A stretch of 64,000 nt of DNA from Candidatus Komeilibacteria bacterium (GTDB lineage Bacteria > Patescibacteriota > Patescibacteriia > UBA1558 > GWA2-36-10), in assembly GCA_018656065.1 (NCBI GenBank), contig JABHZY010000015.1, positions 5,622 through 69,621 of the forward strand. Reading direction: 5' to 3'. Below are positions 9,346 through 40,041 of the stretch, one piece after another. The first letter of the stretch is position 1, and each line of letters starts with the position of its first letter. The notes under the pieces were generated by a model. That model searched no databases and was not told the DNA's origin. It saw only the letters and a list, made by a program, of their open reading frames with translations. The translations under genes and the position numbers were made by a program.

Positions 9346-10701
9346 TTATTTTAATGTTAAAGGATTGTTAAATTTTAATACTTTCGTTTCAAAATTTAAC
9401 TGTTCTGCTATTATTATAGCAAATTTTTCCAAAACCTGCTTGTCACCATGATTTAGCAGTATTTGTTTGGGTTGTTTGAAGCCTCCTAACCATTGTAATA
9501 GGGCAGATTGATCGGCGTGAGCTGAGAAGCCATCTATTTGATCAGCCACTGCTCTTACTTCTATTTTTCGTCCATAATAATCAAAATCAAAAGCACCATT
9601 TAATATTTTATGGCCCAAGGTACCTGGTACTTGGAAACCCATGAATAAAATATTATTATTTCTATCACCAATATATTGGGAGAGGTGATGTATCATTCGT
9701 CCGCCTTCCATCATTCCAGAGCCAGCCATAATAATTTTAGGAGGCGGTACGGTATTTATTTCTTTAGATTGTCGGATGTGGTTAGTAATTTTTAAATGAG
9801 GAAAGTCAAAAATATCTCGATCTCGTTTCATAACATCTTGGGCGTCTTCATTTAGATAATCAAGGTGTTTTTTATAGACTCGAGTAGCTTCGGCGGCCAT
9901 AGGGCTATCTAGAAAGACTGGCACTGCAAAATCTAAATGAGATTCATAATAGTCATTCAAGACCTTAAGAATGTCTTGGGTTCTTTCTAAAGCAAAAATT
10001 GTAATTAATAACGTGGAACGATTAAGGGTGGCTCGTTGAACAGCTTTAATTAATTCTTTATCACGAGTTTTAGTATCATGATGAGCGCGGTCACCATAGG
10101 TGCCTTCACAAATTACATAGTCAGCCTGTTTAATGATATCTATGTCTTTGACTAGCGGCATATCTTCTCCACCAATGTCTCCGGAAAATACTATAGTCTT
10201 ATTGCCAGCTTTAATTTCCACTATAGATGAACCGAGAATATGGCCAGCGTTGTGAAGTTTGAAACTAATATCAGGATTTAAATCTTGCTTCTCATAATAA
10301 TTTAAAGGCACAAAACTTTTCATAGCCCTATTTAAATCTTTTTGCCCAAACATTTTTGGCATTTTTTTACGAAAAGCTTTTTCATCCATTATAAAATAAC
10401 TATCCTCCAAGACTATTTTAGCTAAATCAATAGTAGCTCCAGTAGCATAGATGGGTCCGTTGTATCCTTTGGAGTAGAGCTTTGGTAAACGACCACAATG
10501 ATCTAAATGAGCGTGAGTCAGAATGACAGCGTCTACATTTTGTGGATCAAACAAAAAACTATCCCAGTTTTTGACATAGTTATCCCAATTACCTTGCCAC
10601 ATTCCACAATCAACTAAAATACGATAACCATCTATATTTAGCAGATGACATGAGCCAGTCACTTCTTCGGTAGCACCGTATGATGTTAGTTTTATTTCCA
10701 T
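9346..10701 (-). CDS. MBL-fold beta-CASP family hydrolase (RNA-metabolising, RNase J/CPSF-like)
   Basis: 451-aa ORF with HAHLDHCG motif 2, and beta-CASP-like middle and C-terminal HAD/H motifs (FSAHADQ, LNHGD). Confidence 0.8.
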   Translation of the reverse strand: MEIKLTSYGATEEVTGSCHLLNIDGYRILVDCGMWQGNWDNYVKNWDSFLFDPQNVDAVILTHAHLDHCGRLPKLYSKGYNGPIYATGATIDLAKIVLEDSYFIMDEKAFRKKMPKMFGQKDLNRAMKSFVPLNYYEKQDLNPDISFKLHNAGHILGSSIVEIKAGNKTIVFSGDIGGEDMPLVKDIDIIKQADYVICEGTYGDRAHHDTKTRDKELIKAVQRATLNRSTLLITIFALERTQDILKVLNDYYESHLDFAVPVFLDSPMAAEATRVYKKHLDYLNEDAQDVMKRDRDIFDFPHLKITNHIRQSKEINTVPPPKIIMAGSGMMEGGRMIHHLSQYIGDRNNNILFMGFQVPGTLGHKILNGAFDFDYYGRKIEVRAVADQIDGFSAHADQSALLQWLGGFKQPKQILLNHGDKQVLEKFAIIIAEQLNFETKVLKFNNPLTLK

Positions 10702-12593: not shown

Positions 12594-12634
12594 AAAAAAC
12601 TCGTCCATTCGACTTTGCTCAGGACGAGTTTTTA
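12594..12634. terminator. Bidirectional terminator with conserved 15-nt loop ATTCGACTTTGCTCA
   Basis: Stem ACTCGTCC (12599-12606) / GGACGAGT (12622-12629), with an A-run before and a T-run after. The loop is shared with the terminators at 31852-31878 and 39984-40010. Confidence 0.7.
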
Positions 12635-12639
12635 GATTT

Positions 12640-13485
12640 TTATTTATATAAGCCCATAATTAATTTGTTAACTGATTCAAAGTCACCATCATTTTCTATT
12701 ATAATATCAAAGTTTTCTAAAAACTGTTTTTTTATTTTAGTATCGTCATAATTTAAAAAGCCAATTTTTATTAAATTATCATAATCAAAGCCAGTAATCA
12801 TATCTATATCAGCTAGATTATCGCCAAGTAAAATTACATTTTTTCTATTAACTATCTCTTTATATATTTTAGGAAAATTTTTAACTATAGTCTCGTCTTT
12901 ATTAAGGGAATGAATTATTGGCTCTTTGATAGAGATAGCATTGCCTTTGTCATCCCAATTGAGAGAATTAGTTATATAGTGGATATTTGCATAATCTTGT
13001 TTTGCATTTTGGAAATATAACGGGACAGCTTCGCCGACACCGCTAGCTGATAGTATTAGCAGAGGAATATTTTGAGTATGTAGATAGTCCACAAACTTAT
13101 TTACTCCTTGGCGGAATTTTATATTACGATCTTTTATGATCTCAACTATATCATTTTTATTTAAACCTGATTCGATTAATAATTGTTTGTGAGTTCTCCA
13201 CCAAGTATCCATGGCTAGCTTTTTATCGGCTAGTTTTATATTAGGGTCAATTTCAATTGGATGATATTTATCAAATAAGGTGTGGGCTTGCTTAGCATAA
13301 TCTGATGTAAGATATTGTCCGTTTCTTAATACAGCTATAATAGAGGGGATTTTTTGGCCATCTACAGAACTATAAGTTAGGGTACGGTCAAAATCAGCTA
13401 AAATATGTAGCTTATCTTTACCTGCTTGTTTGATATTAGATATTGTTTGATCTAATTTTTTTTGATTGGGGATTATTACTGACAT
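12640..13485 (-). CDS. HAD-superfamily hydrolase, pyrimidine 5'-nucleotidase (UMPH-1)-like
   Basis: 281-aa ORF. DFDRTLT (HAD motif I), LILSASG (motif II) and LLGDNLADIDM (motif IV-like). Confidence 0.5.
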   Translation of the reverse strand: MSVIIPNQKKLDQTISNIKQAGKDKLHILADFDRTLTYSSVDGQKIPSIIAVLRNGQYLTSDYAKQAHTLFDKYHPIEIDPNIKLADKKLAMDTWWRTHKQLLIESGLNKNDIVEIIKDRNIKFRQGVNKFVDYLHTQNIPLLILSASGVGEAVPLYFQNAKQDYANIHYITNSLNWDDKGNAISIKEPIIHSLNKDETIVKNFPKIYKEIVNRKNVILLGDNLADIDMITGFDYDNLIKIGFLNYDDTKIKKQFLENFDIIIENDGDFESVNKLIMGLYK

Positions 13486-16754: not shown

Positions 16755-17357
16755 TTAAAGTTTTCCTACTAGATCTAAACCAGGCTTTAAAGTATCAGCA
16801 CCAGGCTTCCAGTTAGCCGGACAAACTTGATCACCGTGTTCATGTACAAATTGAGCAGCTTGGAGAGTGCGTAGTAATTCATCGCTACTTCGTCCTATGC
16901 CATTATCATGGACTTCAATGGTTTTTAGTATTCCATCAGGGTTGATAATAAAAGTTCCTCTAAGCGCTAGACCTTCTTCTTCAATTAGGACTCCATATTT
17001 GTATGAGACCTCATGAGTTGGATCAGCTACCATAGGGAATTTTATTTTTTTGATAGTATCGCTGTCTTCATGCCAAGCTTTATGTACAAAGACAGTGTCA
17101 GTTGATACTGATAGTACTTCGGCATTGAGCTTTTTAAGCTCTTCATATTTATCAGCCAAGTCGCCTAACTCAGTAGGACAGACAAAAGTAAAGTCAGCTG
17201 GGTAGAAAAATAGAATTACCCACTTTCCTTTATAGTCAGATAGTTTTACTTTTTTAGTATCATCTTCGTGATAAATTTCTGCTTCAAAATCTGGGGCAGG
17301 ACGGCCAATTTTTAATTCATAGCCACATCCACCACCACAACAATTTTCTTTTTCCAT
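16755..17357 (-). CDS. 2-Cys peroxiredoxin (AhpC/Prx1-type) with Cys-rich N-terminal extension
   Basis: FTFVCPTE peroxidatic Cys motif and a C-terminal resolving-Cys region (GDQVCPANW). The N-terminus is MEKENCCGGGCGYE. Confidence 0.85.
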   Translation of the reverse strand: MEKENCCGGGCGYELKIGRPAPDFEAEIYHEDDTKKVKLSDYKGKWVILFFYPADFTFVCPTELGDLADKYEELKKLNAEVLSVSTDTVFVHKAWHEDSDTIKKIKFPMVADPTHEVSYKYGVLIEEEGLALRGTFIINPDGILKTIEVHDNGIGRSSDELLRTLQAAQFVHEHGDQVCPANWKPGADTLKPGLDLVGKL

Positions 17358-17396: not shown

Positions 17397-17454
17397 GTCA
17401 TTTCGACTGTAATGGAGAAATCTAGCTGGATCTCTCGACTACGCTCGAGATGAC
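17397..17454 (-). repeat. Family-A 58-bp quasi-palindromic GC-rich element, copy 1
   Basis: GTCATTTCGACTGTAATGGAGAAATCTAGCTGGATCTCTCGACTACGCTCGAGATGAC. Lies between the patatin stop and the peroxiredoxin start. Confidence 0.8.
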
Positions 17455-17469
17455 AAGCCTATTATTTAT

Positions 17470-18360
17470 TTAATTAATAAAACCAATTTTTTTTAATAAC
17501 TTTTCCCCTTTAGCTACTCCATGTTTGTATGAGGTATAAATTCTTTCTTGACTTCGCTCTCTTTTAGAGGTGTTGGCCTCATCATAGACTACATGGACAT
17601 TTTTATATCTAGCCAGAGTTTCTATGTATGGGTAATTTAGAATACTAAAAAGGTGTTTAAAGCCATACATAGGACCTAGATAACGTGCTTTAAATAATAT
17701 ATCAAGTAAATCCCAAAGTAAGAATTTTAATACTCTTGGTAGAGTCTTTCGGTCATTAAAGATATATAATATTTTTTTATCAGGATATTTACGAACAACA
17801 TTTTTTATAAAATCTCTAGTGGGCATAATACCACCATCATAATATAATTCGTTTTTTATTTTGGTGTAAGCATAAGGTGGTACTTTAGCAGACTGGATTA
17901 GACGATTAATAGTGTCTACTTTGCCATCTAGATATTCTAGACGTAAAGTTTCAGGATTAAAAACACGAGCATAGAAATTGATAGATGAAGTACGAATTTT
18001 CTTTACATCTAATTTGGTATCGCCCATAGTTTCTAATTCTCGAGCATAATCCAAATCAATAATATTAAAAGGTTTTTTGTGAATAAATAATTGCCAACAT
18101 TTATGCCAGATTATTTTAGGTGATAAATCTTTTAAAAATTTGTGTTTTTTATATAAATGCTCGTAGTATATTTTTCCACCTATTTCAGTTTGATGAGCTA
18201 GAAAATAAGCTGCGTTATGAGCGCCAGAAGATACGCCATAAACAGAGTGAACTCGAGGATATAGGTTATGTTTTTGGAAAGCTGCTAATACACCAGCACT
18301 AAAGACGCCTTGGATAGTTCCTCCTTTAACAATAATAATTACATCTCGCTCTGTTTCCAT
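17470..18360 (-). CDS. Patatin-like phospholipase
   Basis: KGGTIQG (oxyanion Gly-rich loop), GVSSGA (GxSxG) and YDGG (catalytic Asp). Confidence 0.75.
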   Translation of the reverse strand: METERDVIIIVKGGTIQGVFSAGVLAAFQKHNLYPRVHSVYGVSSGAHNAAYFLAHQTEIGGKIYYEHLYKKHKFLKDLSPKIIWHKCWQLFIHKKPFNIIDLDYARELETMGDTKLDVKKIRTSSINFYARVFNPETLRLEYLDGKVDTINRLIQSAKVPPYAYTKIKNELYYDGGIMPTRDFIKNVVRKYPDKKILYIFNDRKTLPRVLKFLLWDLLDILFKARYLGPMYGFKHLFSILNYPYIETLARYKNVHVVYDEANTSKRERSQERIYTSYKHGVAKGEKLLKKIGFIN

Positions 18361-18379
18361 TAGATTATAAATTAATATT

Positions 18380-18994
18380 TTATTTAGTAGCTTGGTATTT
18401 CTCCGCTACCTTTAGCCAGTTTATCACATTAAAGAAGTTTTCGACAAATTCGGCTCGTCTATTTTGATATTTTAGATAATATGAGTGCTCCCAAACATCA
18501 ATACTTAATATAGGGATATGACCTAGAGAGTAGGGACTATCTTGTTTACTAGTTTGTTCTATTATCAGTTTACCATCAGCTACTGACAACCAAGCCCAGC
18601 CTGAACCAAAGACAGTCATGGCAGCTTTAGTAAATTCTTCTTTGAATTTTTCTGGTGATCCAAAGGCGTCATTTATAGCTTGTAATAATTCTCCTTCTGG
18701 TTGGCCGCTTTCATTAGCTGGAGCCATGATTTCCCAAAAAAAGCTATGATGGACATGTCCGCCACCGTGATTTTTGACAGCTGAACGAATTTCTTCAGGC
18801 AAAGAATTTATATTAGCTAAGATATCTTCAGCTGATTGTTCAGCAATCTTTGGATAAGCCTCAAGGGCTTTATTAAAATTAGCGGTATAAGCAACATGGT
18901 GCTTGTCATGATGAATTTTCATGGTAGCTTCATCAATATATGGCTCTAGCGCATTGTATTCATATGGTAGAGCTGGTGTTTCAAATTTACTCAT
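18380..18994 (-). CDS. Fe/Mn superoxide dismutase
   Basis: PALPYEYNALEPYIDEATMKIHHDKHH and DVWEHSYYL. Confidence 0.9.
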   Translation of the reverse strand: MSKFETPALPYEYNALEPYIDEATMKIHHDKHHVAYTANFNKALEAYPKIAEQSAEDILANINSLPEEIRSAVKNHGGGHVHHSFFWEIMAPANESGQPEGELLQAINDAFGSPEKFKEEFTKAAMTVFGSGWAWLSVADGKLIIEQTSKQDSPYSLGHIPILSIDVWEHSYYLKYQNRRAEFVENFFNVINWLKVAEKYQATK

Positions 18995-19027
18995 ATATTT
19001 TTATTTAGTTTATTATATTATTAATTT

Positions 19028-19084
19028 GTCATTTCGACCGCAGTGGAGAAATCTAGCAAGATCTCTCGACAAGCTCGAGATGAC
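19028..19084 (-). repeat. Family-A quasi-palindromic element, copy 2
   Basis: GTCATTTCGACCGCAGTGGAGAAATCTAGCAAGATCTCTCGACAAGCTCGAGATGAC. Lies between the nifU stop and the SOD start. Confidence 0.8.
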
Positions 19085-19088
19085 AACA

Positions 19089-19811
19089 CTAGCCAAAATA
19101 TTTTTCAGTATAAAATCTAATTAATTGTTCTACTTCTGGTATCACTTCTGGATTACCAACGCCCACTTTAGTTTTTTTCTGGACAGCTTCTAGGGTGTGA
19201 GCGCCCTCGAGCACTGCTTCTTCTATGTCGTGATCGGTTACTTTAGCTATTTTATCAATTATTCTTACTTGTTCTTTAATAACTCTATCTTTTTGTTTAG
19301 TTTTTATAAAATAATTATTGATCGCAGAACGAAGTGCTTTATCGCCAAGTACTGAACAGTGGATTTTTCTAGTTGGTAAATCTCCTAAGCGCTTGGTAAT
19401 GTCTTGAGGTTTGATAGCTAGAGCTTTATCTATTTTTATACCACCTGCTTCAGATACCATAACAGAAAGCATAGAGGTGGCGGCAATAGCTGAGCCGCAA
19501 CCAAAAGTTTGCCACTTCATTTCTTTAATCTTGTCAGCTTGCTTATCTACTTTGATCCAGATCTTCATCATATCACCACAAGCAGGGGAGCCAACCATAC
19601 CTAAACCATCGTAGCCTTTCATTTTACTAGCGTCAGTCACTAGATTTTTAGGGCTAAAGAAATGTTCTTTAACTGTATCAGTATAGATCCAAGTATCATT
19701 TGTACCCTTAGGCACTACATCTACAGAACTAGCTATATCTGTTTTCCTTCGACTAGGCTTCTTTCCACTTCGGTCAAGATCTTTGACAGGACTTTTAGTC
19801 TTTTTTGGCAT
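19089..19811 (-). CDS. nifU: NifU/IscU-type Fe-S scaffold protein with Lys-rich N-terminal extension and Cys-less BFD-like middle/C-terminal region
   Basis: GSPACGDMM, FGCGSAIA and KIHCSVL (the three IscU Cys ligands). Confidence 0.8.
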   Translation of the reverse strand: MPKKTKSPVKDLDRSGKKPSRRKTDIASSVDVVPKGTNDTWIYTDTVKEHFFSPKNLVTDASKMKGYDGLGMVGSPACGDMMKIWIKVDKQADKIKEMKWQTFGCGSAIAATSMLSVMVSEAGGIKIDKALAIKPQDITKRLGDLPTRKIHCSVLGDKALRSAINNYFIKTKQKDRVIKEQVRIIDKIAKVTDHDIEEAVLEGAHTLEAVQKKTKVGVGNPEVIPEVEQLIRFYTEKYFG

Positions 19812-19830
19812 ATATATAAATGTATATTAA

Positions 19831-21072
19831 TTATAAAGTTTCAATTTTACGTGGAGCATTTTTAATAGCCCTGTCCACTTCTTTCATATCTACTATCACG
19901 GGGGAAGCAGCACGTAAATGTTTAATTATATCTGGTAAATGTTTGAGTACATATTTTATATCAGTCGCTTTAGTATATTTACCCAATGTAAAGCGCATAG
20001 ATCCATGAGCTACTTCATAAGGACAACCCAAAGCTCGGATGACATGGCTAGGGTCTAGAGTAGTTGAAGTACAAGCTGAACCAGTAGAAGCTTGAATACC
20101 TATTTCATCGAGATAGAGGAGCATAGCTTCGCCTTCTACATCTAAGATAGAAATGTTTACATTATTAGGTAGTCTTTTAGTAGTATGGCCATTTAAGATA
20201 GTCTTAGGAATAGTTTTCAAAATACCAGTTATTAGCTGATCTCTTAGTTTAGTAAGGCGTGCGTTTTCTTTATGCTTAGTTTGATTAGTTAATTCCAAAG
20301 CAGTGGCTAATCCAACAATGCCAGGGACATTTTCAGTTCCAGAACGTAGATTTTTTTCTTGACCGCCACCATCTATAATAGCTCTGATGATAGTGCCAGT
20401 TTTAATATATAAGAGACCAACGCCTTTTGGCCCATATATTTTACTACCATTAATAGTCATTAGATCAACATGAAGTTTTTTAACATCTAGATCTAGAGTT
20501 CCTGAGGCTTGGCAAGCATCAGTATGAAAATAAATTCTAGGCAAAGCCTTTTTGGCACGGGCTTTATTTATTTTTTCTATTAAAGCTCCAATTTTTTGAA
20601 TATCTTGAATAACGCCAATTTCATTATTAGCAATCATTATAGAAATTAAGCGAGTATTATCTTGAATAGCTGTTTCAATGTCACTTAATTTAATTAAACC
20701 TTCAGCATCAACTGGTAAAATAGATATAGCCTGGCCAGATTTTTTAAGACTGTCGGCAGTATGAAGTACAGCGTGATGTTCAATAGAGGAGGTAATCATA
20801 TGACCAGCTTCTATTTTATTCATTACGCCTTTGAGAGCTAGATTAACACTTTCAGTGCCACCACCAGTGAATATTATTTCATCAGTTTGGCAATTTAGTA
20901 GCTTACTAATCTTTATTTTGGCCTGACTTATAGCCTCTTTACTTTTTAAGCCTAATTGATAGAGGCTAGAGGGATTTCCATAGTAGGTATTCCAATATGG
21001 TTCCATAGCTTTAACCACTTTAGGGTCAGTAGGGGTAGTGGAGGCATAGTCTAGGTATATTTTTTTTTTCAT
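19831..21072 (-). CDS. nifS: Cysteine desulfurase (NifS/IscS, class V aminotransferase)
   Basis: 413 aa. INGSKIYGPKG (PLP Lys region) and SGSACTS (active-site Cys loop). Confidence 0.9.
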   Translation of the reverse strand: MKKKIYLDYASTTPTDPKVVKAMEPYWNTYYGNPSSLYQLGLKSKEAISQAKIKISKLLNCQTDEIIFTGGGTESVNLALKGVMNKIEAGHMITSSIEHHAVLHTADSLKKSGQAISILPVDAEGLIKLSDIETAIQDNTRLISIMIANNEIGVIQDIQKIGALIEKINKARAKKALPRIYFHTDACQASGTLDLDVKKLHVDLMTINGSKIYGPKGVGLLYIKTGTIIRAIIDGGGQEKNLRSGTENVPGIVGLATALELTNQTKHKENARLTKLRDQLITGILKTIPKTILNGHTTKRLPNNVNISILDVEGEAMLLYLDEIGIQASTGSACTSTTLDPSHVIRALGCPYEVAHGSMRFTLGKYTKATDIKYVLKHLPDIIKHLRAASPVIVDMKEVDRAIKNAPRKIETL

Positions 21073-21152
21073 AATTTATTTTTTTAAATGAGAGTAAAGG
21101 CGCCTAATCATTGATTTTGATAGGTTTAAGATCCTTATAATTTAGCATCTAG

Positions 21153-21371
21153 CTATTTTACAGGTGGATGAATCTGTTTACCATCATCATCAGAGATAAT
21201 AATAGCGTTAACTGGACAGCTTTGAGCTGATTGGAGGATAGTAGCTTCATCATCTCCCTTGGGATCCTTGATAATAGCAATGCCTTCGTCATCTAATTCA
21301 AAGGTGTTTGGAGCTACTGCGACGCAAGTAGCCACACTAGTACAAAGCTCTCTGTCTACTTCAATTTTCAT
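21153..21371 (-). CDS. Small ferredoxin (single-cluster Fer4_13-like)
   Basis: 72 aa. C..TC.AVAP...F......SCP pattern. Confidence 0.7.
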   Translation of the reverse strand: MKIEVDRELCTSVATCVAVAPNTFELDDEGIAIIKDPKGDDEATILQSAQSCPVNAIIISDDDGKQIHPPVK

Positions 21372-21395
21372 ATATAAATATAATTAATTATAATA

Positions 21396-21440
21396 ATGGC
21401 CCAGGCCACCCTCTCTAGCCTTGCTATTCACCTTGTATTA
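21396..21440 (-). promoter_or_regulatory. Conserved 45-nt 5' UTR element, copy 2
   Basis: See 2606-2650. Here it heads the ferredoxin-nifS-nifU-SOD-patatin-prx gene string and follows a TATAAT. Confidence 0.45.
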
Positions 21441-21472
21441 TTATAACCTAAAACAATTTTTTTTTATATACC

Positions 21473-21501
21473 TTGACAAAAGCCATTTTTCATGCTATAC
21501 T
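21473..21501 (+). promoter_or_regulatory. Strong sigma-70 promoter (TTGACA-N17-TGcTATACT)
   Basis: TTGACA at 21473-21478, TG at 21493-21494, TATACT at 21496-21501. Confidence 0.6.
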
Positions 21502-21507
21502 GTCTTT

Positions 21508-21562
21508 GTAAGTTAGAATTGGCAACAAATTCCGAAAGGAGTTGTGCCAATTTTTTATTTTT
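21508..21562 (+). ncRNA. Candidate ~55-nt small RNA or attenuator: single hairpin with GAAA tetraloop plus U-tract
   Basis: AATTGGCAACAAATTCC-GAAA-GGAGTTGTGCCAATT (21517-21552), then TTTTTTATTTTT. Starts about 7 nt after the promoter above. No ORF. Confidence 0.4.
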
Positions 21563-21657
21563 CTAAACTCTTTTAGAAAAATAGCCCCAATATTTAATAA
21601 TTAATTTTCTAACTTATTAAAAAACTTCTAATTAAATTTTATTAAGAAGAATAAAGT

Positions 21658-21801
21658 ATGCTAAATAATAATTTAAAATCATTTAAACTGGTCATCAAAC
21701 CAGGTGATCGGCAATTAAGGAATAGTGATTACTGGGCAATAATTACTTTGTGTTCAGTGGGTGCGTTTACTCTTCTTTTTATAGTAGGAGGATCTATTTA
21801 A
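21658..21801 (+). CDS. 47-aa small membrane peptide, paralog 1 (KSF...WAI family)
   Basis: My translation is MLNNNLKSFKLVIKPGDRQLRNSDYWAIITLCSVGAFTLLFIVGGSI. Shares KSF at residues 7-9 and WAI at 26-28 with the next ORF. Confidence 0.45.
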   Translation: MLNNNLKSFKLVIKPGDRQLRNSDYWAIITLCSVGAFTLLFIVGGSI

Positions 21802-21823
21802 CAAAAATAAAAACAAAAATAAT

Positions 21824-21949
21824 ATGAAAGAGTGTAAATGTAAATCTTTTCAGCTAGCGGGATTTCGAGCTACTCCTGAAATAGAAAGTCATGAGAATTG
21901 GGCAATATTAAGTCTATTTCTCCTTAACCTAACATTTTGGTACGTTTAA
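21824..21949 (+). CDS. 41-aa small membrane peptide, paralog 2 (KSF...WAI family)
   Basis: MKECKCKSFQLAGFRATPEIESHENWAILSLFLLNLTFWYV. Preceded by a (YAAAAA)n tract. Confidence 0.45.
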   Translation: MKECKCKSFQLAGFRATPEIESHENWAILSLFLLNLTFWYV

Positions 21950-21971
21950 AAAAATAAAAACAAAAACAAAA

Positions 21972-22034
21972 ATGTCACAATTAATGTATGTCTTGCTAAT
22001 TTTTAGTTGGACACCAATCACCTTGTATTGTTAA
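21972..22034 (+). CDS. Possible 20-aa hydrophobic mini-ORF
   Basis: MSQLMYVLLIFSWTPITLYC. Preceded by the same (YAAAAA)n tract as paralog 2. Very short, so weak. Confidence 0.2.
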   Translation: MSQLMYVLLIFSWTPITLYC

Positions 22035-22170
22035 AAATACAATCTAGGTGCCTCTCAATTAATACTTGAGATGAAAACAAAAATAAAAACAACCTGCCTC
22101 GACTTGACCCGCGTCGCTGCGAGGCATAAGTCGATTCAAGGTGGGAAAAGAACATTAAAAATTTAAAATT

Positions 22171-22347
22171 ATGTCATTTTGGAAAAATCTATTCGGAGCT
22201 TCCAAAAAGGAAACTCAAATAATGGAGGAGCCAGAGCATGACCTAAGGGTAGCCCCTCCTGATGATCTGATGATCGTCAAAGATGAAGAAGAATCTAATA
22301 TCTCAGAAGATAAAAAAGAAAATTTAGATAATAGGGACTCTCCCTGA
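22171..22347 (+). CDS. 58-aa acidic hypothetical protein
   Basis: MSFWKNLFGASKKETQIMEEPEHDLRVAPPDDLMIVKDEEESNISEDKKENLDNRDSP. Just under the ORF-track cutoff. Confidence 0.35.
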   Translation: MSFWKNLFGASKKETQIMEEPEHDLRVAPPDDLMIVKDEEESNISEDKKENLDNRDSP

Positions 22348-22426
22348 TAAGAAATATTAGCTTTCTATCTTATATGGAGAGCTTGGAAAATTTGAAAGAG
22401 TTAATTAATAAAATAAAAATAAACAT

Positions 22427-22657
22427 ATGGGATTTGGAATGAGTGGTCTTGGGCCTGATGCGGCGAAAAAGATATCTATAAGTGAAGAAGAAAGTAAAAT
22501 ACTTATAGAAAAACATATAGCCAAAAAAGCAGCAGCTAAGTCTGCGCCAGAAGCTGTTGTTGATAAAGCGGCAATTCAAGAGCAGGAAGCAATTCAAGAA
22601 GAGGAAGAAGTTGGTCAAATGGAAGATATTCGTGAACAAATTGACAGAAGTTCTTGA
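22427..22657 (+). CDS. 76-aa acidic/Lys-rich hypothetical protein
   Basis: Track ORF. Preferred over the antisense 22370-22666 ORF, whose translation is low-complexity F/L/N junk. Confidence 0.4.
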   Translation: MGFGMSGLGPDAAKKISISEEESKILIEKHIAKKAAAKSAPEAVVDKAAIQEQEAIQEEEEVGQMEDIREQIDRSS

Positions 22658-22845
22658 TTCTAACAAAGAACCCTCAGAGATAAAAAGTGCTTAAAATTAT
22701 ATGTAGCAAAAACAAAAACAAAAATTAAAAGCTAATCCTAGGCTAGATAATTAGGATAATAAAAAAACTCCCGAAAAATGGAGAAAATAAAATTTTAAAA
22801 AGATTTTTAGAGTAAAAATAAACTCTAAACAAAAATTAAATAAAA

Positions 22846-22895
22846 AACTTTGTTATATAACAGAGTTTTTTATTTTGGCTTAAAAATGTTATAAT
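22846..22895 (+). repeat. Terminator-promoter junction (hairpin + T-run + TGtTATAAT) ahead of korA
   Basis: AACTTTGTTA-TA-TAACAGAGTT (22846-22867), TTTTTTATTTT, TG at 22887-22888 and TATAAT at 22890-22895. Confidence 0.6.
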
Positions 22896-22925
22896 AATAA
22901 TAAAGTTTTAATCTTAAAAATTCCC

Positions 22926-24665
22926 ATGCAAAACAAAAATAATTTGACTTGGAAGATCGCCGGTGAAGCCGGTTTTGGTATTAAGTCAGCTGGTATGATG
23001 TTTGGAAAAATATTTATGCGAGCTGGTTACGAAATTTTTGATTTTACAGAATATCCATCGCTAATTAGAGGTGGACACAACACTTATCAATTAGTAGTAG
23101 ATACCAGGCCAGTCAATAGTGTATTCAAAAAAAATGATATTTTGGTGGCTCTGAATCAAAATACCATTAAACAAAATTTAGCAGAGCTAAACAGTGGCGG
23201 AGCTCTAATTTATGACAGTGATAAAGTAAAAGTAAGTCCTGCTAAACTAAAAAATGATCATGTTCAAAACATTGGTATTCCTTTGACTAGTATAGCTAAG
23301 GAGGCTGGTGGCGAACTCATGAGAAACGTAGTGGCCTTAGGAGCTACTATGTATTTAGTTGGTCAAAAACTTACTATTGCTAATAAGGTGGTTAAAGAGA
23401 CTTTTTCTAAAAAAGGAAAAAAGATTGTAGACAATAATCTTAAGGCTCTAAAAGCTGGCTATGACTTTGTAAAAGAAAATAGTAAAGATGAATTTATGTG
23501 TCAGCTACCAACTTTGGCAGCCAAAGATAATATTTTTATTACAGCTAATGAATCTATGGCTCTGGGTGCAGTAGCTGGAGGTCTAGGATTTTACGCTGCT
23601 TATCCAATGACCCCTTCTTCATCAATACTTCATTATTTGGCTAAGATTGCCAGTAAGACAGGATTAGTAGTTAAGCATGCTGAAGATGAAATATCAGTCG
23701 CTAATATGGCTTTAGGGGCTTCTCATATGGGAGCTAGGTCAATGGTGGCTACCTCTGGAGGAGGTTTTGCCTTAATGACTGAAACTTTAGGTTTGATGGG
23801 CTTAACCGAAACACCAATGGTACTTATTAATGTGCAAAGAGGAGGTCCAGCAACTGGACTACCTACTTGGACAGAGCAGGCTGATTTACAATTTATGCTT
23901 CACGCTGCTCAAGGTGATTTTCCTAGAATAGTAATGGCTCCCGGAGATGCTGGCGAAGCCTTTGAGATGGGCCACCAAGCACTTAATTGGGCCGATATGT
24001 ATCAAGCGCCAGTACTTATTTTATCTGACAAATTGATTGGCGAGGGGAATACTACAGTGCCAAGATTTAATACTAAAAATGTAAAAATAAACAGAGGTAA
24101 GATTTTGACTCAAGCACAGTTAAGTAAGATAAAAGAGTATGGTCGTTATAAAGTAACTCCAGATGGTATTTCACCAAGAGCTTTGCCGGGTATGAAGGGT
24201 GGGCTTTTTATTGCTAATAGTGATGAGCACGATGCCTATGGATTTTCTAACGAAGATAGTCAGAATCGTATTGACCAAGTTGATAAAAGATATAGAAAAT
24301 TAGATCAGTTTAGAAAAATAATGCCAAAGCCTTTGATCTATGGAAATCCTAAGGCTAAAAAAACTGTAGTTTTTTGGGGATCAAATAAAGGTGTAGTTTT
24401 AGATTCTTATGTAGCTCTGCCTGACAAGATAAAGTCTAAAATTAGAATAATGCAGTATCAATATCTATGGCCTTTTGATGCAGATTTTACTAAAAAGATT
24501 TTGGATAGCTCTAAAGACATATTACTTATAGAAAATAATCCTAATGGTCAGCTGGCTAATCTTATTGCTCAAGAAACTGGCATTATGATTGAAAATAAAT
24601 TACTCAAATATGATGGACGCCCTTTCTTTAGGGAAGAAATAATTAGTGCTTTAAAAAAATTATAA
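22926..24665 (+). CDS. korA: 2-oxoacid:ferredoxin oxidoreductase, alpha subunit (gamma+alpha fused)
   Basis: 579 aa. The N-terminal gamma-like domain (KIAGEAGFGIKSAG) is followed by an alpha domain (AAYPMTPSS). Confidence 0.85.
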   Translation: MQNKNNLTWKIAGEAGFGIKSAGMMFGKIFMRAGYEIFDFTEYPSLIRGGHNTYQLVVDTRPVNSVFKKNDILVALNQNTIKQNLAELNSGGALIYDSDKVKVSPAKLKNDHVQNIGIPLTSIAKEAGGELMRNVVALGATMYLVGQKLTIANKVVKETFSKKGKKIVDNNLKALKAGYDFVKENSKDEFMCQLPTLAAKDNIFITANESMALGAVAGGLGFYAAYPMTPSSSILHYLAKIASKTGLVVKHAEDEISVANMALGASHMGARSMVATSGGGFALMTETLGLMGLTETPMVLINVQRGGPATGLPTWTEQADLQFMLHAAQGDFPRIVMAPGDAGEAFEMGHQALNWADMYQAPVLILSDKLIGEGNTTVPRFNTKNVKINRGKILTQAQLSKIKEYGRYKVTPDGISPRALPGMKGGLFIANSDEHDAYGFSNEDSQNRIDQVDKRYRKLDQFRKIMPKPLIYGNPKAKKTVVFWGSNKGVVLDSYVALPDKIKSKIRIMQYQYLWPFDADFTKKILDSSKDILLIENNPNGQLANLIAQETGIMIENKLLKYDGRPFFREEIISALKKL

Positions 24666-24677
24666 ATTATATATCCT

Positions 24678-24735
24678 GTCATCTCGAGCGTAGTCGAGAG
24701 ATCTTGATAGATTTCTCCGCTTCGGTCGAAATGAC
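24678..24735 (+). repeat. Family-A quasi-palindromic element, copy 3 (same orientation relative to transcription as copies 1-2)
   Basis: GTCATCTCGAGCGTAGTCGAGAGATCTTGATAGATTTCTCCGCTTCGGTCGAAATGAC. Lies between korA and korB. Confidence 0.8.
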
Positions 24736-24752
24736 AAATTAAAAATAAAATT

Positions 24753-25610
24753 ATGCAGGAAAAAGATTTTAACACAAGTTATGAACCAAGTTGGTGTCCA
24801 GGATGTGGAAATTTTGGCATATTCATAGCTTTAAAAAATGCCTTAGTAGAATTAGGGCTTAAGCCAGACAATGTTTTATTAGTAGCTGGCATTGGCTGTT
24901 CGGGCAATGGAGTTAATTTTCTCAAAGCTTACGGTTGGCATTCACTTCATGGTCGGGCACTTCCTACTGCAGTAGGAGCTAAGCTAGCTAATCAAAATAT
25001 GACGGTCATAGTTATGGCTGGTGATGGTGATAGTTATGGTGAAGGTATGGCTCATTTTATTCACGCTGTGCGTGGTAACGCTAATATCACTTATATTACA
25101 CACGACAATAGTTTGTATTCTTTGACTACTGGTCAATCAGCTCCAACTACAGATAAAGGTACTAGAACTAAATCTACTCCAGATGGTTTGATAGAAGTAA
25201 GAGCCAATCCAATGAGCTTAGCTTTATCCGCTGGAGGCGGTTTTGTGTCTCGTGGTTTTTCTGGTCAAGCTGATCATCTTACTAGTTTAATTAAAAAAGC
25301 TATTAACCACGAAGGATTTTCATTAGTCGACGTTTTTCAACCTTGCGTGACTTTTAATAAGATAAATACTTTTAAATATTATCTTGATAGATTATATAAT
25401 TTAGATGAGCAATCTAATTATAAAGCAAATAATCTAGAAGCGGCTCATAAAGAAGCACTTGTCTGGGGTAATAAAATTCCTTATGGATTGTTTTATCAAG
25501 ATAAGCGTCGTAGTTATGGCGACCATCTACCACAACTCAAAGGTCAGCCTTTAGCTAAACGACCAGTTAAAGTTAGAAATATTGATCAATTAACTCGTGA
25601 GTTTGCTTAA
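24753..25610 (+). CDS. korB: 2-oxoacid:ferredoxin oxidoreductase, beta (TPP-binding) subunit
   Basis: WCPGCGNFG and GDGDSYGEG (TPP motif). Confidence 0.85.
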   Translation: MQEKDFNTSYEPSWCPGCGNFGIFIALKNALVELGLKPDNVLLVAGIGCSGNGVNFLKAYGWHSLHGRALPTAVGAKLANQNMTVIVMAGDGDSYGEGMAHFIHAVRGNANITYITHDNSLYSLTTGQSAPTTDKGTRTKSTPDGLIEVRANPMSLALSAGGGFVSRGFSGQADHLTSLIKKAINHEGFSLVDVFQPCVTFNKINTFKYYLDRLYNLDEQSNYKANNLEAAHKEALVWGNKIPYGLFYQDKRRSYGDHLPQLKGQPLAKRPVKVRNIDQLTREFA

Positions 25611-31846: not shown

Positions 31847-31880
31847 AAAAAACACCCATTCGACTACGCTCAGGGTGTTT
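31847..31880. terminator. Bidirectional terminator with conserved 15-nt loop ATTCGACTACGCTCA
   Basis: Stem ACACCC (31852-31857) / GGGTGT (31873-31878), flanked by an A-run and a T-run. Confidence 0.7.
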
Positions 31881-32528
31881 TTATTTTAGTTTAGCTAAGG
31901 CTTCTTTGATGCTATCAGCTTTTTGAAAATACGATCCAGGGCAGACTATATTGGCGCCAGCTTTAGTGATAGCCTTAAAAGTTTTATCATTAACTGCGCC
32001 ATCCACCTCTATATTGATGTTAGGATATTTATAGCGCAAAGCTTTTATTTTAGTGATTACCTTAGATTGAAATTTTTGACCTTGTTTGCCAGGAGTGACA
32101 CCCATGATTTGTATTGTATCAAAGTCAGAAATTATATTTTTGATACTAGCTAGTGATGTATTAGGATTGATGGCCAGGCCGGTTTTTATTTTTTTATTTT
32201 TTAAATAATTATTGATAGCAGCTATACGCTGAGTATTTTTATTGGCTTCGTAATGCCAAATAATTTTTTTAACATTTTTAAGCTTAGCCCAGCGAGTTAT
32301 ATATTTACTAACTCCATCTACCATTAGATGAATTTCTAATTTATGTTTTTTAGTCAGTAGACGCACAGTTTCAGGAGTAATAGAATTTTTTTGTTTAGTA
32401 AATTCTCCATCCATAATATCTATTTGAGCGTAGCTAAAATAAGGGCTGATTTTTTTCCAGTGCTTGATAAATTCAGCTTTATTTTTTGATAGTATAGAAG
32501 GAATTATTTTTATTTTCTTTTTAGGCAT
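31881..32528 (-). CDS. rpe: Ribulose-phosphate 3-epimerase-like
   Basis: PSILS, DIMDGEF, HLMV and VDGAVN motifs in the expected order. Confidence 0.7.
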   Translation of the reverse strand: MPKKKIKIIPSILSKNKAEFIKHWKKISPYFSYAQIDIMDGEFTKQKNSITPETVRLLTKKHKLEIHLMVDGVSKYITRWAKLKNVKKIIWHYEANKNTQRIAAINNYLKNKKIKTGLAINPNTSLASIKNIISDFDTIQIMGVTPGKQGQKFQSKVITKIKALRYKYPNINIEVDGAVNDKTFKAITKAGANIVCPGSYFQKADSIKEALAKLK

Positions 32529-33985: not shown

Positions 33986-34061
33986 GGTGCCCATGGTGTA
34001 ACGGTTAACACAGCGGCTTGTGGTGCCGCTAATGAGGGTTCGATTCCCTCTGGGCACCCCA
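33986..34061 (+). tRNA. tRNA-His (anticodon GUG) with encoded G-1 and CCA
   Basis: Acceptor GTGCCCA/TGGGCAC, with an extra 5' G opposite discriminator C. D stem GTGT/ACAC, anticodon loop TTGTGGT, T arm GAGGG-TTCGATT-CCCTC. Confidence 0.85.
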
Positions 34062-34108
34062 TCAAAGAATGAGCTAGTATTAGCTCGTTTTTTGTTTTGT
34101 GGTATAAT
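34062..34108 (+). repeat. Junction cassette J1 (abuts the tRNA-His CCA): TCAAAGAAT-GAGCTA-GTAT-TAGCTC-T-run-TGGTATAAT
   Basis: Hairpin at 34071-34086 and TATAAT at 34103-34108. The ATG follows 6 nt later (leaderless geometry). Confidence 0.75.
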
Positions 34109-34114
34109 TTATTT

Positions 34115-35661: not shown

Positions 35662-35792
35662 AATCAGGATTCTCCATCAAAAAAGTTCTGAAAGTGTCCC
35701 ATAGGGCACCCCATTTGTCCTGAGCGAGAGTAACGAGTCGAAGGGTCAAAAAGTGAGCTAACCTTAGCTCGTTTTTTGTTTTGTGGTATACT
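35661..35792 (+). repeat. Composite junction J2: E-box + tRNA-His-like minihelix + GC-rich insert + GAGCTA-ACCT-TAGCTC terminator + TGGTATACT
   Basis: AAATCAGGATTCTCCATCAAAAAAGTTCTGAAA, then GTGTCCCATAGGGCACCCCA (35694-35713), TTGTCCTGAGCGAGAGTAACGAGTCGAAGGGT, a hairpin at 35755-35770 and the -10 at 35787-35792. Confidence 0.75.
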
Positions 35793-35822
35793 TAAGGTGT
35801 TATTAAAATTTAAATTAAATTT

Positions 35823-36070: not shown

Positions 36071-36221
36071 TTATTCTCCACTAAAAAAGTTCTGAAAGTG
36101 TCCCACCCTTCGGCTTCGCTCAGGGTCTACGATAGGACCCCATTTGTCCTGAGCGAGAGTAACGAGTCGAAGGGTCAAAAAGTGAGCTAGCAATAGCTCG
36201 TTTTTTGTTTTGTGGTATAAT
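36071..36221 (+). repeat. Composite junction J3 (as J2, with an extra GC-rich insertion splitting the minihelix)
   Basis: TTATTCTCCACTAAAAAAGTTCTGAAAGTGTCCCA, then CCCTTCGGCTTCGCTCAGGGTCTACGA, TAGGACCCCAT, TTGTCCTGAGCGAG..., a hairpin at 36184-36199 (loop GCAA) and TATAAT at 36216-36221. Confidence 0.75.
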
Positions 36222-36248
36222 TAAAGTATTATTAAAATAGAAAAAATA

Positions 36249-37860: not shown

Positions 37861-37999
37861 TAACCAAGGTCCGAATGGGACCCTCGCCCGCTATGCTAGT
37901 GCAAGCGTGGCGAGTGGGCCAGCAAAAAGTGAGCTAACATTAGCTCGTTTTTTGTTTGCTGTATTTTTTTATTATTTATTGTTAATATATAAGTATAAT
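37861..37999 (+). repeat. Composite junction J4 (different GC-rich inserts, GAGCTA-ACAT-TAGCTC terminator, relocated TATAAT)
   Basis: GGTCC-GAAT-GGGACC and CTCGCC...GGCGAG hairpins. Terminator at 37931-37946 and TATAAT at 37994-37999. Confidence 0.65.
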
Positions 38000-38291: not shown

Positions 38292-38342
38292 ATAATCAAA
38301 GAATGAGCTAATGTTAGCTCGTTTTTTGTTTTGTGGTATAAT
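38292..38342 (+). repeat. Junction cassette J5 (TCAAAGAAT-GAGCTA-ATGT-TAGCTC-T-run-TGGTATAAT)
   Basis: The 15 nt TCAAAGAATGAGCTA are identical to J1. Hairpin at 38305-38320 and TATAAT at 38337-38342. Confidence 0.75.
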
Positions 38343-38366
38343 TAGAGTGTTATTAAAATTTAAATC

Positions 38367-39336: not shown

Positions 39337-39502
39337 AAATCAGGATTCTCCACCAAAAAAGTGCTCCGCCCGACATCGCCTAACGACGAAGTCGTTGGCG
39401 GACGGGTGAAAGTGTTCCACCCCCTCCCTCGGGGGTTATAATAGAGGATCCCAGTCAAAGAATTACCTCATATTGAAGTGGTTTTTTGTTTTGTGCTATA
39501 CT
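39337..39502 (+). repeat. Composite junction J6 (E-box, two GC-rich palindromic inserts, degenerate hairpin, TGCTATACT)
   Basis: AAAATCAGGATTCTCCACCAAAAAAGT, an insert with AACGAC-GAA-GTCGTT, then GAAAGTGTTCCA, CCCCC-TCCCTC-GGGGG, ...CCCAGTCAAAGAAT. The -10 is at 39497-39502. Confidence 0.65.
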
Positions 39503-39525
39503 GAAGATGTTATTAAAATAAAGTT

Positions 39526-39942: not shown

Positions 39943-40041
39943 CACCCGCCTAGACTCGCATTTATGCGAGGCTGGTCAAAAAGTGACCTATTCGACTTCG
40001 CTCAGGGTCATTTTTTGTTTTTGTAGCATATATGATATAAT
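39943..40041 (+). repeat. Composite junction J7 (family-F copy 2 + conserved-loop terminator + TGaTATAAT)
   Basis: CACCCGCCTAGACTCG...GGCTGGT, then CAAAAAGTGACCT-ATTCGACTTCGCTCA-GGGTCA, a T-run, and TATAAT at 40036-40041. Confidence 0.65.

Follow-up and report, generated by a model that had tools for sequence, protein, structure and literature searches.

The window, by which we mean the whole 64,000-nt stretch of Candidatus Komeilibacteria DNA analysed here, contains three copies of a 58-nt hairpin element (E1-E3), each placed between genes of redox and Fe-S metabolism. Pfam assignments give the order nifS (cysteine desulfurase), nifU, E2, Fe/Mn-SOD, patatin, E1, peroxiredoxin on the minus strand and korA, E3, korB on the plus strand, and the gene calls of the original prediction were right at all three junctions. 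The nearest named relatives of KorB are proteins of Patescibacteria, with 79% identity to that of a Candidatus Komeilibacteria MAG. The elements and their halves, below called C-arm and T-arm, are as follows (SRM repeats are introduced further on):

17397..17454, minus strand: E1, SRM-like inverted doublet between patatin (17470-18360, minus) and peroxiredoxin (16755-17357, minus)
17429..17454, minus strand: C-arm of E1, forward SRM-like hairpin, tGTC-ATCTCGA-GCGTAG-TCGAGAT-C
17397..17422, plus strand: T-arm of E1, forward SRM-like hairpin, tGTC-ATTTC-GACTGTAATGGA-GAAAT-C
19028..19084, minus strand: E2, SRM-like inverted doublet between nifU (19089-19811, minus) and Fe/Mn-SOD (18380-18994, minus)
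19060..19084, minus strand: C-arm of E2, GTCATCTCGAGCTTGTCGAGAGATC
19028..19053, plus strand: T-arm of E2, GTCATTTCGACCGCAGTGGAGAAATC
24678..24735, plus strand: E3, SRM-like inverted doublet between korA (22926-24665, plus) and korB (24753-25610, plus)
24678..24703, plus strand: C-arm of E3, GTCATCTCGAGCGTAGTCGAGAGATC
24710..24735, minus strand: T-arm of E3, GTCATTTCGACCGAAGCGGAGAAATC on the minus strand

The third copy is inverted on the plus strand, and all three have the same orientation relative to transcription, as had been noticed in the original prediction. The near-identity of the copies was also borne out: the 57-58-nt cores are 88-91% identical in pairwise comparison (with flanks, mean column identity is 83%), and the differences among them (9-12%) are mostly located in the loops and in the middle of the T-arm. 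For a 26-nt pattern derived from the element, 0.00 chance occurrences are expected in the window. Each element consists of two inverted hairpin modules of ~26 nt, the arms, which form a doublet and have the layout YGTC-ATYYCGA-loop-(T)CGRRAT-C or, more fully, GTC-ATYYC-GA-[SS-GNA-SS]-GA-GRRAT-C. In all three doublets a C-arm (ATCTC/GAGAT) is followed by a T-arm (ATTTC/GAAAT) after a spacer of 4-6 nt (6 nt in E1, read on the minus, mRNA-sense strand), and the shared composition therefore indicates one composite ancestor. In all six arms TGTC precedes ATYTC, a C follows the palindrome (...GAGAT-C or ...GAAAT-C), and at least five outer base pairs are perfectly paired; in a population variant (L003) A replaces the post-palindrome C in E3. 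A generic search of the window for GTC, then a palindrome starting with AT, then C recovered only the six half-elements and one A/T-rich chance hairpin, and no further copy or arm was found by this search, be it in the window or in the ~20 kb of host DNA next to it. By a rough calculation that assumes uniform placement, the occurrence of three doublets in 7.3 kb of ~84 kb of contiguous host DNA has P of ~0.02. The sole strong intrinsic terminator is located after peroxiredoxin, with none at the element junctions, and no copy is followed by a U-tract.

KorB identity served to recover relatives in which the gene order is conserved, and the junctions corresponding to E1-E3 have the following lengths:

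Window (KorB 100%): patatin/peroxiredoxin 112 nt (E1); SOD/nifU 94 nt (E2); korA/korB 87 nt (E3)
L268 (KorB 88%): patatin/peroxiredoxin not covered; SOD junction not covered; korA/korB 4 nt
L269 (KorB 84%): no peroxiredoxin; SOD/nifS 26 nt (no nifU); korA/korB 4 nt
L270 (KorB 82%): no peroxiredoxin; SOD/nifS 19 nt (no nifU); korA/korB 4 nt
L256 (KorB 81%): patatin/peroxiredoxin 18 nt; SOD/nifU 29 nt; korA/korB 4 nt
L258/L259 (KorB 78%): patatin/peroxiredoxin 18 nt; SOD/upstream gene 109 nt, with an unrelated hairpin; korA/korB 96 nt, with a different solo SRM

The korA/korB junction reads TAAATATATG in all four empty relatives (L268, L269, L270 and L256), and L256 lacks the element at all three junctions. 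In L258/L259 the solo SRM, GATTCCGGATCGAGTCCGGAATGAC, adjoins the korB start, and a second SRM is located downstream of peroxiredoxin. Filled and empty sites differ by the core, ~4 nt on each side (TT...AA) and extra A/T-rich sequence. Alignments of filled and empty junctions revealed no clean target-site duplication or transposition intermediate, so that mobility is deduced from presence and absence only. As the junctions of the relatives examined lack the element wherever they exist, E1-E3 are lineage-specific, recent insertions and not a conserved regulatory signal; presence of the element at orthologous junctions, which had been named as a check in the original prediction, was not observed in these relatives.

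Similar elements are distributed over many phyla. A scan of one genome per GTDB species for the termini (GTCATYTCGA, 28-48 nt, TCGARATGAC) gave at least 120 loci, with ~45 matches expected by chance according to our estimate, in Bacteroidota, Desulfobacterota/Syntrophales, Riflebacteria, Chloroflexota, Omnitrophota, several lineages of Patescibacteria, and others. An inner motif that was not part of the query, GAGARATC...GATYTCTC, occurs in 72 of 126 elements among the matches listed, and the segment between the conserved blocks is variable in sequence, yet still complementary. In Syntrophales the core is embedded in a larger palindrome of ~110 nt, whose flanks are unrelated between loci, a pattern characteristic of a dispersed repeat. 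A single-arm scan of metagenomes (GTCATCTCGAGC, 2-4 nt, GTCGAGAGATC) also yielded at least 120 loci, on contigs with GC content of 27-67%; here the arms often occur solo or have an inverted partner tens to hundreds of nt away. The 5' flanking base before GTC is mostly T or C across the family. Association with phages was considered and rejected, the termini pattern being found in only nine viral contigs and the full inner-motif pattern in two of these; three or four more show an arm-like sequence.

All-against-all BLAST of the open reading frames at the ~120 loci listed produced only generic families and no recurrent neighbour, and hence no locally linked transposase; the functional enrichment of neighbours suggested for the element is thus absent among these matches. 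Gene context was determined by crude gene calls for 136 unique doublets, of which 49 lie between co-directional, 20 between convergent and 3 between divergent genes, the remaining ones being at contig edges, far from genes or 'inside' called ORFs. Rarity between divergent genes is the usual REP-like avoidance of promoter regions. For asymmetric C-arm/T-arm doublets between co-directional genes elsewhere in the family, the orientation relative to transcription is 7:7, and the co-orientation in the window (3/3, two-sided p=0.25, or 4/4 with the doublet at the ssn locus described below) is not significant, so that the strict orientation bias, which had been held to argue against neutral insertion, did not survive. 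A replication-linked orientation is unlikely, as E1 and E2 are inverted with respect to E3 within 7 kb, tracking the gene strand. None of the three sites is matched by an Rfam covariance model, whether gathering thresholds or E up to 10 are applied, and a literature search with the sequence string returned only primers and shRNA hairpins.

As predicted, the mRNA-sense strand of the elements folds into a rod (-26.6 to -30.9 kcal/mol, z from -4.3 to -6.6). Folding of the antisense strand is just as favourable (-27 to -28.5 kcal/mol). The rod is favoured over two separate arm hairpins both in RNA (-23 to -28 vs. -10 to -14 kcal/mol) and in DNA (-7 to -13 vs. -5 to -8 kcal/mol). Covariation, however, backs the arms and not the 25-bp rod. 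Within an arm, both variable Y positions are complementary to its two R positions in 482 of 490 cases; among unique arms the concordance is 237/245 (CT/AG 105, TT/AA 103, TC/GA 19, CC/GG 10), while pairing across the rod is concordant in 75 of 135 doublets only (56%). In the set of 63 unique arms from termini-only scans, the arm hairpin is 96.8% paired, with 65 double-changed cells vs. 24.7 in shuffles (none of 500 shuffles reached 65), and the pair 11-17, which is not constrained by any search pattern, covaries (CG 27, GC 17, AU 12). These data support the arm hairpin, rather than the rod, as the selected unit. The rod exists because two similar palindromes stand head to head and, being thermodynamically favoured, could mask the arms. 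The hairpin in polycistronic transcripts is most likely a by-product; an incidental effect on mRNA, e.g., because korA and korB are no longer as tightly spaced as in relatives, is possible.

The arms resemble a repeat described in Neisseria. The NTS, CGTCATTCCCGCGMAVGCGGGAATCYRG, contains the dRS3 repeat ATTCCC-N8-GGGAAT, and its generalised form, the Ssn-related motif (SRM), flanks ssnA, a gene for a 94-aa single-domain GIY-YIG protein, across many phyla (Chenal et al., Nat Commun 2025; PMC11893778). SsnA, the one protein characterised as a binder of such motifs, recognises and cleaves them exclusively in ssDNA and exclusively on the forward strand, with the cut a few nt upstream of the motif, its substrates excluding RNA and dsDNA; in Neisseria cleavage is governed by the three bases before the palindrome, and binding depends most on the C directly behind it (PMC11893778). 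In N. meningitidis the Ssn system lowers transformation by NTS-bearing DNA, and the NTS-ssnA-NTS unit was likened to an insertion sequence and compared with REP/RAYT/BIME by its authors (PMC11893778). The C-arm of the window, TGTC-ATCTCG-AGCGTAGT-CGAGAT-C-TTG, has the GTC tag, a 6+8+6 palindrome and the trailing C, and the arms form the ~20-bp hairpin-forming imperfect palindrome characteristic of SRM/NTS. The published SRM search string, HGTCWYN(0-2)YYVSBRHN(0-5)WNVSBRGN(0-2)RNCYNB, which the NTS consensus itself satisfies, has no match in the window, whose arms are one or two substitutions away from it, and matches 0 of 383 unique arms of this type. The arms fail the string because their stem has CGA...(T)CG/GAG with tandem G-A and is not G+C-rich; as the string was hand-built from 29 genomes, the failure marks a divergent subfamily and does not exclude kinship. 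The words doublet, REPIN, Patescibacteria and Bacteroid- are absent from the main text of that paper (PMC11893778).

Genes of the corresponding type are enclosed by the arms. Inverted arms surround ORFs of 92-106 aa at six loci (L132, L151, L209, L233, L105 and L136), the arms of L136 showing a further compensatory variant, ATTGC/GCAAT. A Pfam scan of three enclosed ORFs (L151, L233 and L236) identified single-domain PF01541 proteins with at most a weak overlapping T5orf172 match; NCBIfam has no specific model that matches the GIY-YIG protein, and no solved homologue was found in the PDB by sequence. L132 is a complete unit of 502 nt: its outermost modules are the two arms, each followed inwards by a pair of small hairpins, and the ORF in between is preceded by a ribosome-binding site (AGGAGG). 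L221 carries two tandem ORF-less versions of ~320 nt that have the end modules of L132; in these structured versions Rfam found nothing, only unrelated dfrA-dnaX RNAs being present nearby. Together, these form a deletion series from 502 nt (L132) through ~320 nt (L221) to the 58-nt doublets, the smallest. The window elements retain the order of the arm-ssn-arm unit, C-arm then T-arm, with the gene missing, and the C-arm of E2 is identical in its 25 nt to the arm 5' of ssn in L151, being also found in a Peribacteria MAG (L082).

No ssn gene is present in the window or in its ~20-kb flanks. With the GIY-YIG protein of L151 as query, P0124 was found (86% identity). Its longest contig has 223,468 nt, exactly the length of ERZ27237584:k141_267546, the contig at the window's right edge, and P0124 contigs come from the same samples as contigs identical to the window. 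The unit found there is as follows:

L264, 9931-10292: host arm-ssn-arm unit, consisting of a C-arm, a 14-nt spacer, a 106-aa ORF and a T-arm

The C-arm of L264 (9929-9956, flanks included) is identical to the C-arms of E1 and E3 in 28 of 28 nt, and the GC content of L264 is 32.3%, that of the window being 32.8%. On indirect but consistent evidence, namely the 223,468-nt match, the shared samples, the base composition and the identical arms, the ssn gene is very probably in the host genome, on the contig of the window. The ORF has 106 aa when started from ATG 9971 (9971-10291; the gene caller's start is 10 codons later), and its stop codon lies inside the T-arm. The protein (MKEYNFYVYIM...LYIGVT...IEREKQLKKW), a candidate member of the Ssn nuclease family (CDD cd10448), shows the tyrosines of GIY and YIG and, around position 64, a Glu; that family is defined by a single GIY-YIG domain of ~94 aa with catalytic Tyr/Tyr/Glu. 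Just upstream of the unit there are a further doublet and arm fragments; this doublet looks like a local tandem duplication. In L264 ssn belongs to a type IV pilus operon, with pilC on one side and pilin genes on the other, and in L151 it occupies the same position, with an intact ORF and 87% nucleotide identity, which points to a resident, vertically inherited gene.

Taken together, the 58-nt elements are best explained as ORF-less inverted doublets of NTS/SRM-type repeats and predicted cognate sites of GIY-YIG Ssn nucleases, to which we assign a probability of about 0.72. As gene-less paired Ssn hairpin repeats they would be an example of the system described in 2025, and not a redox regulator. 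By analogy with SsnA of N. meningitidis, the elements would come into play in DNA that is made single-stranded by replication, by repair or in the uptake of transforming DNA. Each single strand would then expose one forward-oriented arm in its 5' half, Ssn would bind the arm hairpin and nick a few nt upstream; since a doublet offers one forward arm per strand, it is symmetric for Ssn recognition. As non-autonomous derivatives of the arm-ssn-arm unit, similar to REPINs or MITEs, the repeats may spread and persist, and incoming homologous ssDNA with repeats may be cut, leading to less recombination around the flagged genes. From this analogy we infer that the doublets could serve Ssn-dependent spread, restriction of incoming homologous ssDNA, or both. 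A stronger version, in which the doublets are true non-autonomous transposable elements mobilised in trans by a single-domain ssDNA nuclease and the nuclease of the pilus operon polices incoming ssDNA at repeat-flagged loci, the oxidative-stress/Fe-S cluster of the window being one example, is possible, though we regard it as doubtful. If it were true, arm-ssn-arm would be a previously unrecognised class of ssDNA-based mobile element, and the doublets would be GIY-YIG analogues of REPINs.

The reading favoured in the original prediction was an RNA-level one, with the ~25-bp rod acting as a cis element, either as an mRNA stabiliser or processing site or as the target of a bound protein that coordinates redox and Fe-S genes. 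The strong fold (z down to -6.6) is consistent with it, as are the intra-operon location of all three copies at junctions without a terminator, their concentration within 7.3 kb of redox genes, the co-orientation with transcription that they share with the ssn-locus doublet, and the SRM hairpins that the relative L258 has in the same cluster, one of them at korA/korB. However, the antisense fold is equally good, covariation favours the arms, three copies are too few for a bias that the rest of the family does not show, and SsnA does not bind RNA (PMC11893778). A redox-specific element is rejected on account of the same operons being empty in L256 at three junctions and in L268, L269 and L270 at korA/korB, and of the unrelated neighbours elsewhere: no function is common to the neighbours of the ~120 matches listed, in many phyla. 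Overall, we find a role in RNA very unlikely. Even less probable, to the point of being nearly negligible, is a classical REP/REPIN mobilised by a RAYT, i.e., an IS200/IS605-like Y1 HUH transposase, rather than a GIY-YIG nuclease. Its appeal lies in the short imperfect palindromes with an unpaired 5' tag, in the inverted doublets forming a long hairpin, and in the gene context, mostly co-directional or convergent and rarely divergent; a CGTC tag, which YGTC resembles, is reportedly found in one REP superfamily. Yet what inverted arms enclose are genes for single-domain GIY-YIG proteins and not for Y1 transposases, no transposase-like family recurs among the neighbours of the ~120 matches listed, the arm agrees with NTS in layout, down to the GTC tag and the post-palindrome C, and the host very probably carries arm-ssn-arm. 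As an analogy, the earlier label 'REP/BIME-like' stands, the element being an inverted doublet of short tagged palindromes comparable to a REPIN.

The elements might also be inert relics of past activity of Ssn elements, kept in intergenic spacers as harmless and having no present effect. The low copy number (three in 84 kb and one at the ssn locus), the divergence of the copies, the loss of the post-palindrome C from E3 in the L003 variant and the duplication-like rather than transposition-like appearance of the ssn-adjacent doublet would agree with this. On the other hand, all six arms retain intact stem positions and GTC...C determinants, the E1 and E3 C-arms are identical to the arm beside an intact ssn, and this ORF has been maintained at a conserved position in two lineages, so that we consider mere relics rather unlikely. 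The Ssn-related doublets of our preferred reading are in part modestly new: the cross-phylum SRM subfamily was missed by the published pattern, the compact inverted-doublet (REPIN-like) form is new as well, and so, very probably, is the Patescibacteria host with ssn in a type IV pilus operon.

For annotation, this reading explains a very common cross-phylum hairpin in the intergenic DNA of uncultured bacteria, which yields spurious short ORFs, e.g., with SLEMT or VRSK at the end of the peptide tail; the two window ORFs that had been labelled spurious (18921-19124, plus strand, and 24569-24775, minus strand) do exist. The Ssn repeat-nuclease system is extended to Patescibacteria and to a large subfamily. 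With intra-operon doublets and an ssn gene in a type IV pilus operon, CPR bacteria offer a way to test whether Ssn is linked to DNA uptake and genome stability.

Among known systems, NTS/SRM-Ssn is the closest. The window arms and NTS/SRM have in common a hairpin of ~26-28 nt with an unpaired 5' (C/T)GTC and a palindrome ATYYC...GRRAT followed by C, the C-arm having the 6+8+6 geometry of dRS3 (ATCTCG-N8-CGAGAT). In both, inverted repeats flank a gene for a single-domain GIY-YIG protein of ~94-106 aa, and the repeats are dispersed in intergenic regions of many phyla, with clusters around some genes. The sole parallel to the clustering of E1-E3 in the redox region is provided by the NTS clusters in Neisseria. 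In contrast to NTS/SRM, the window repeats are tight inverted doublets behaving as one 58-nt unit, the host belongs to Patescibacteria (CPR) and has ssn in a type IV pilus operon, and the system is known here from sequence alone.

REP, REPIN and BIME elements, which are said to be associated with RAYT transposases, likewise consist of short tagged palindromes whose inverted doublets form a long hairpin in single strands; they are non-autonomous, paired with a single-copy gene that is itself flanked by repeats, extragenic and often located inside operons. Here, however, the enzyme is a GIY-YIG nuclease, whereas theirs is a Y1 HUH transposase, and the arms keep their sequence from phylum to phylum, while REPs are as a rule confined to particular lineages. 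Like MITEs, the doublets lack an ORF and derive from a gene-bearing parent of which only the two inverted ends are left, but no DDE transposase or target-site duplication was identified here, and each 'terminal repeat' is itself a hairpin, presumably recognised as ssDNA. Finally, Neisseria intergenic mosaic elements (NIMEs) are reportedly short stretches of intergenic DNA with inverted dRS3-type hairpin repeats at their borders. The elements of the window are likewise short intergenic segments between inverted hairpin repeats, differing in that the dRS3 copies of NIMEs enclose repeat units of 50-150 bp, while the arms described here are separated by a spacer of 4-6 nt.

Among the relatives with the same redox gene order, found by KorB identity, korA and korB are separated by only 4 nt (TAAATATATG) in four (L256, L268, L269 and L270), a spacing that suggests translational coupling of the two genes. 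In the window, where the inverted doublet E3 lies at this junction, the gap is 87 nt (24665-24753), and no obvious Shine-Dalgarno sequence was found before korB. Another relative, L258/L259 (KorB 78% identical), carries solo Ssn-related motifs (SRMs) in the same redox cluster, differing from those of the window:

L258/L259, 9968-9992 and 2289-2322: two solo SRM variants, one (stem ATTCCGGA/TCCGGAAT) between korA and korB, adjoining the korB start, the other (stem ATTGC/GCAAT) directly downstream of the peroxiredoxin gene

The motifs of the two lineages may share ancestry and have undergone compensatory drift, or may have been inserted independently. The gene content of the cluster is itself fluid among the relatives. 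Relatives (L256 5717-6883; contig of protein cluster P0003) have a gene for a Fur-family regulator upstream of that for ferredoxin and, between ferredoxin and nifS, another peroxiredoxin gene (153 aa). For the window's species, the gene calls of L001 and L002 (compared with window 21072-22926) include neither of these at the corresponding positions, where short unannotated ORFs alone are called. Moreover, nifU and the terminal peroxiredoxin gene are missing from L269 and L270.

Larger forms of the repeat were also found. Syntrophales and their relatives (L010, L035, L043, L079, L121, L081, L058, L021 and L038) have an asymmetric core, one arm of which bears a small extra hairpin, AGTC-TTCAC-GACT. 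This core is situated within a larger conserved palindrome, AGTGTCATGTCAACGATACTCT[core]ATTTCTTGATTGACACGACACT, with a length of about 110 nt, outside which the loci are unrelated in sequence; in L038, one end of the element is partially duplicated. On L221, a contig of 28% GC, two tandem ORF-less Ssn-type elements of about 320 nt directly adjoin an array of five tandem matches to the dfrA-dnaX RNA motif (Rfam RF02952; 568-1086), four with scores that reach or exceed the gathering threshold and one just under it.

ORFs running into the arms yield recurrent peptide tails, e.g., ...DLSTSLEMT and ...DFSTHSVRSK; tails of this kind form the C-termini of P0186, P0124 (the GIY-YIG protein assigned to the host) and P0122. 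The window contains two such ORFs:

18921-19124, plus strand: arm-containing ORF
24569-24775, minus strand: arm-containing ORF

Such translation of the arms accounts for many of the short "hypothetical proteins" and unusual C-termini with which uncultured bacteria are annotated.

Three bidirectional terminator-like hairpins of the window, two at convergent gene ends and one at a co-directional junction, have the order A-run, stem, T-run:

12596-12644: terminator-like hairpin
31847-31895: terminator-like hairpin
39979-40027: terminator-like hairpin

Their stems are unlike (CTCGTCC, CACCC and GTGACC), while a 15-16-nt "loop", ATTCGACTNNGCTCAGG, is kept in all three, and in one of them a stretch of 12 nt, TCGACTACGCTC, is identical to the centre of the C-arm of E1, the patatin-peroxiredoxin doublet. 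These hairpins may be derived from the SRM or may constitute a separate, second repeat family. Elsewhere in the window, short paralogous genes in series are kept apart by a repeated module made up of a hairpin terminator (stem GAGCTA...TAGCTC, with a T-run) and a promoter of the extended -10 type, TGTGGTATAAT:

34059-34113: terminator/promoter module
35743-35797: terminator/promoter module
36172-36226: terminator/promoter module
37919-37973: terminator/promoter module
38293-38347: terminator/promoter module
39481-39519: terminator/promoter module

Finally, the host gene for the small GIY-YIG nuclease, ssn, is located within a type IV pilus operon that also encodes PilM, PilB, PilT and a prepilin peptidase:

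L264 (contig of the host species), 9797-10292: host ssn locus, between pilC (T2SSF) and pilin genes
L151, 5068-5428: ssn at the same position in a lineage whose nucleotide sequence is 87% identical

This conserved placement is suggestive, as SsnA modulates natural transformation in Neisseria (PMC11893778). One population variant of E3 (L003 5001-5058) has A instead of C after the C-arm palindrome (GAGAGATA); in Neisseria, SsnA binding depends most critically on the C following the palindrome (PMC11893778).
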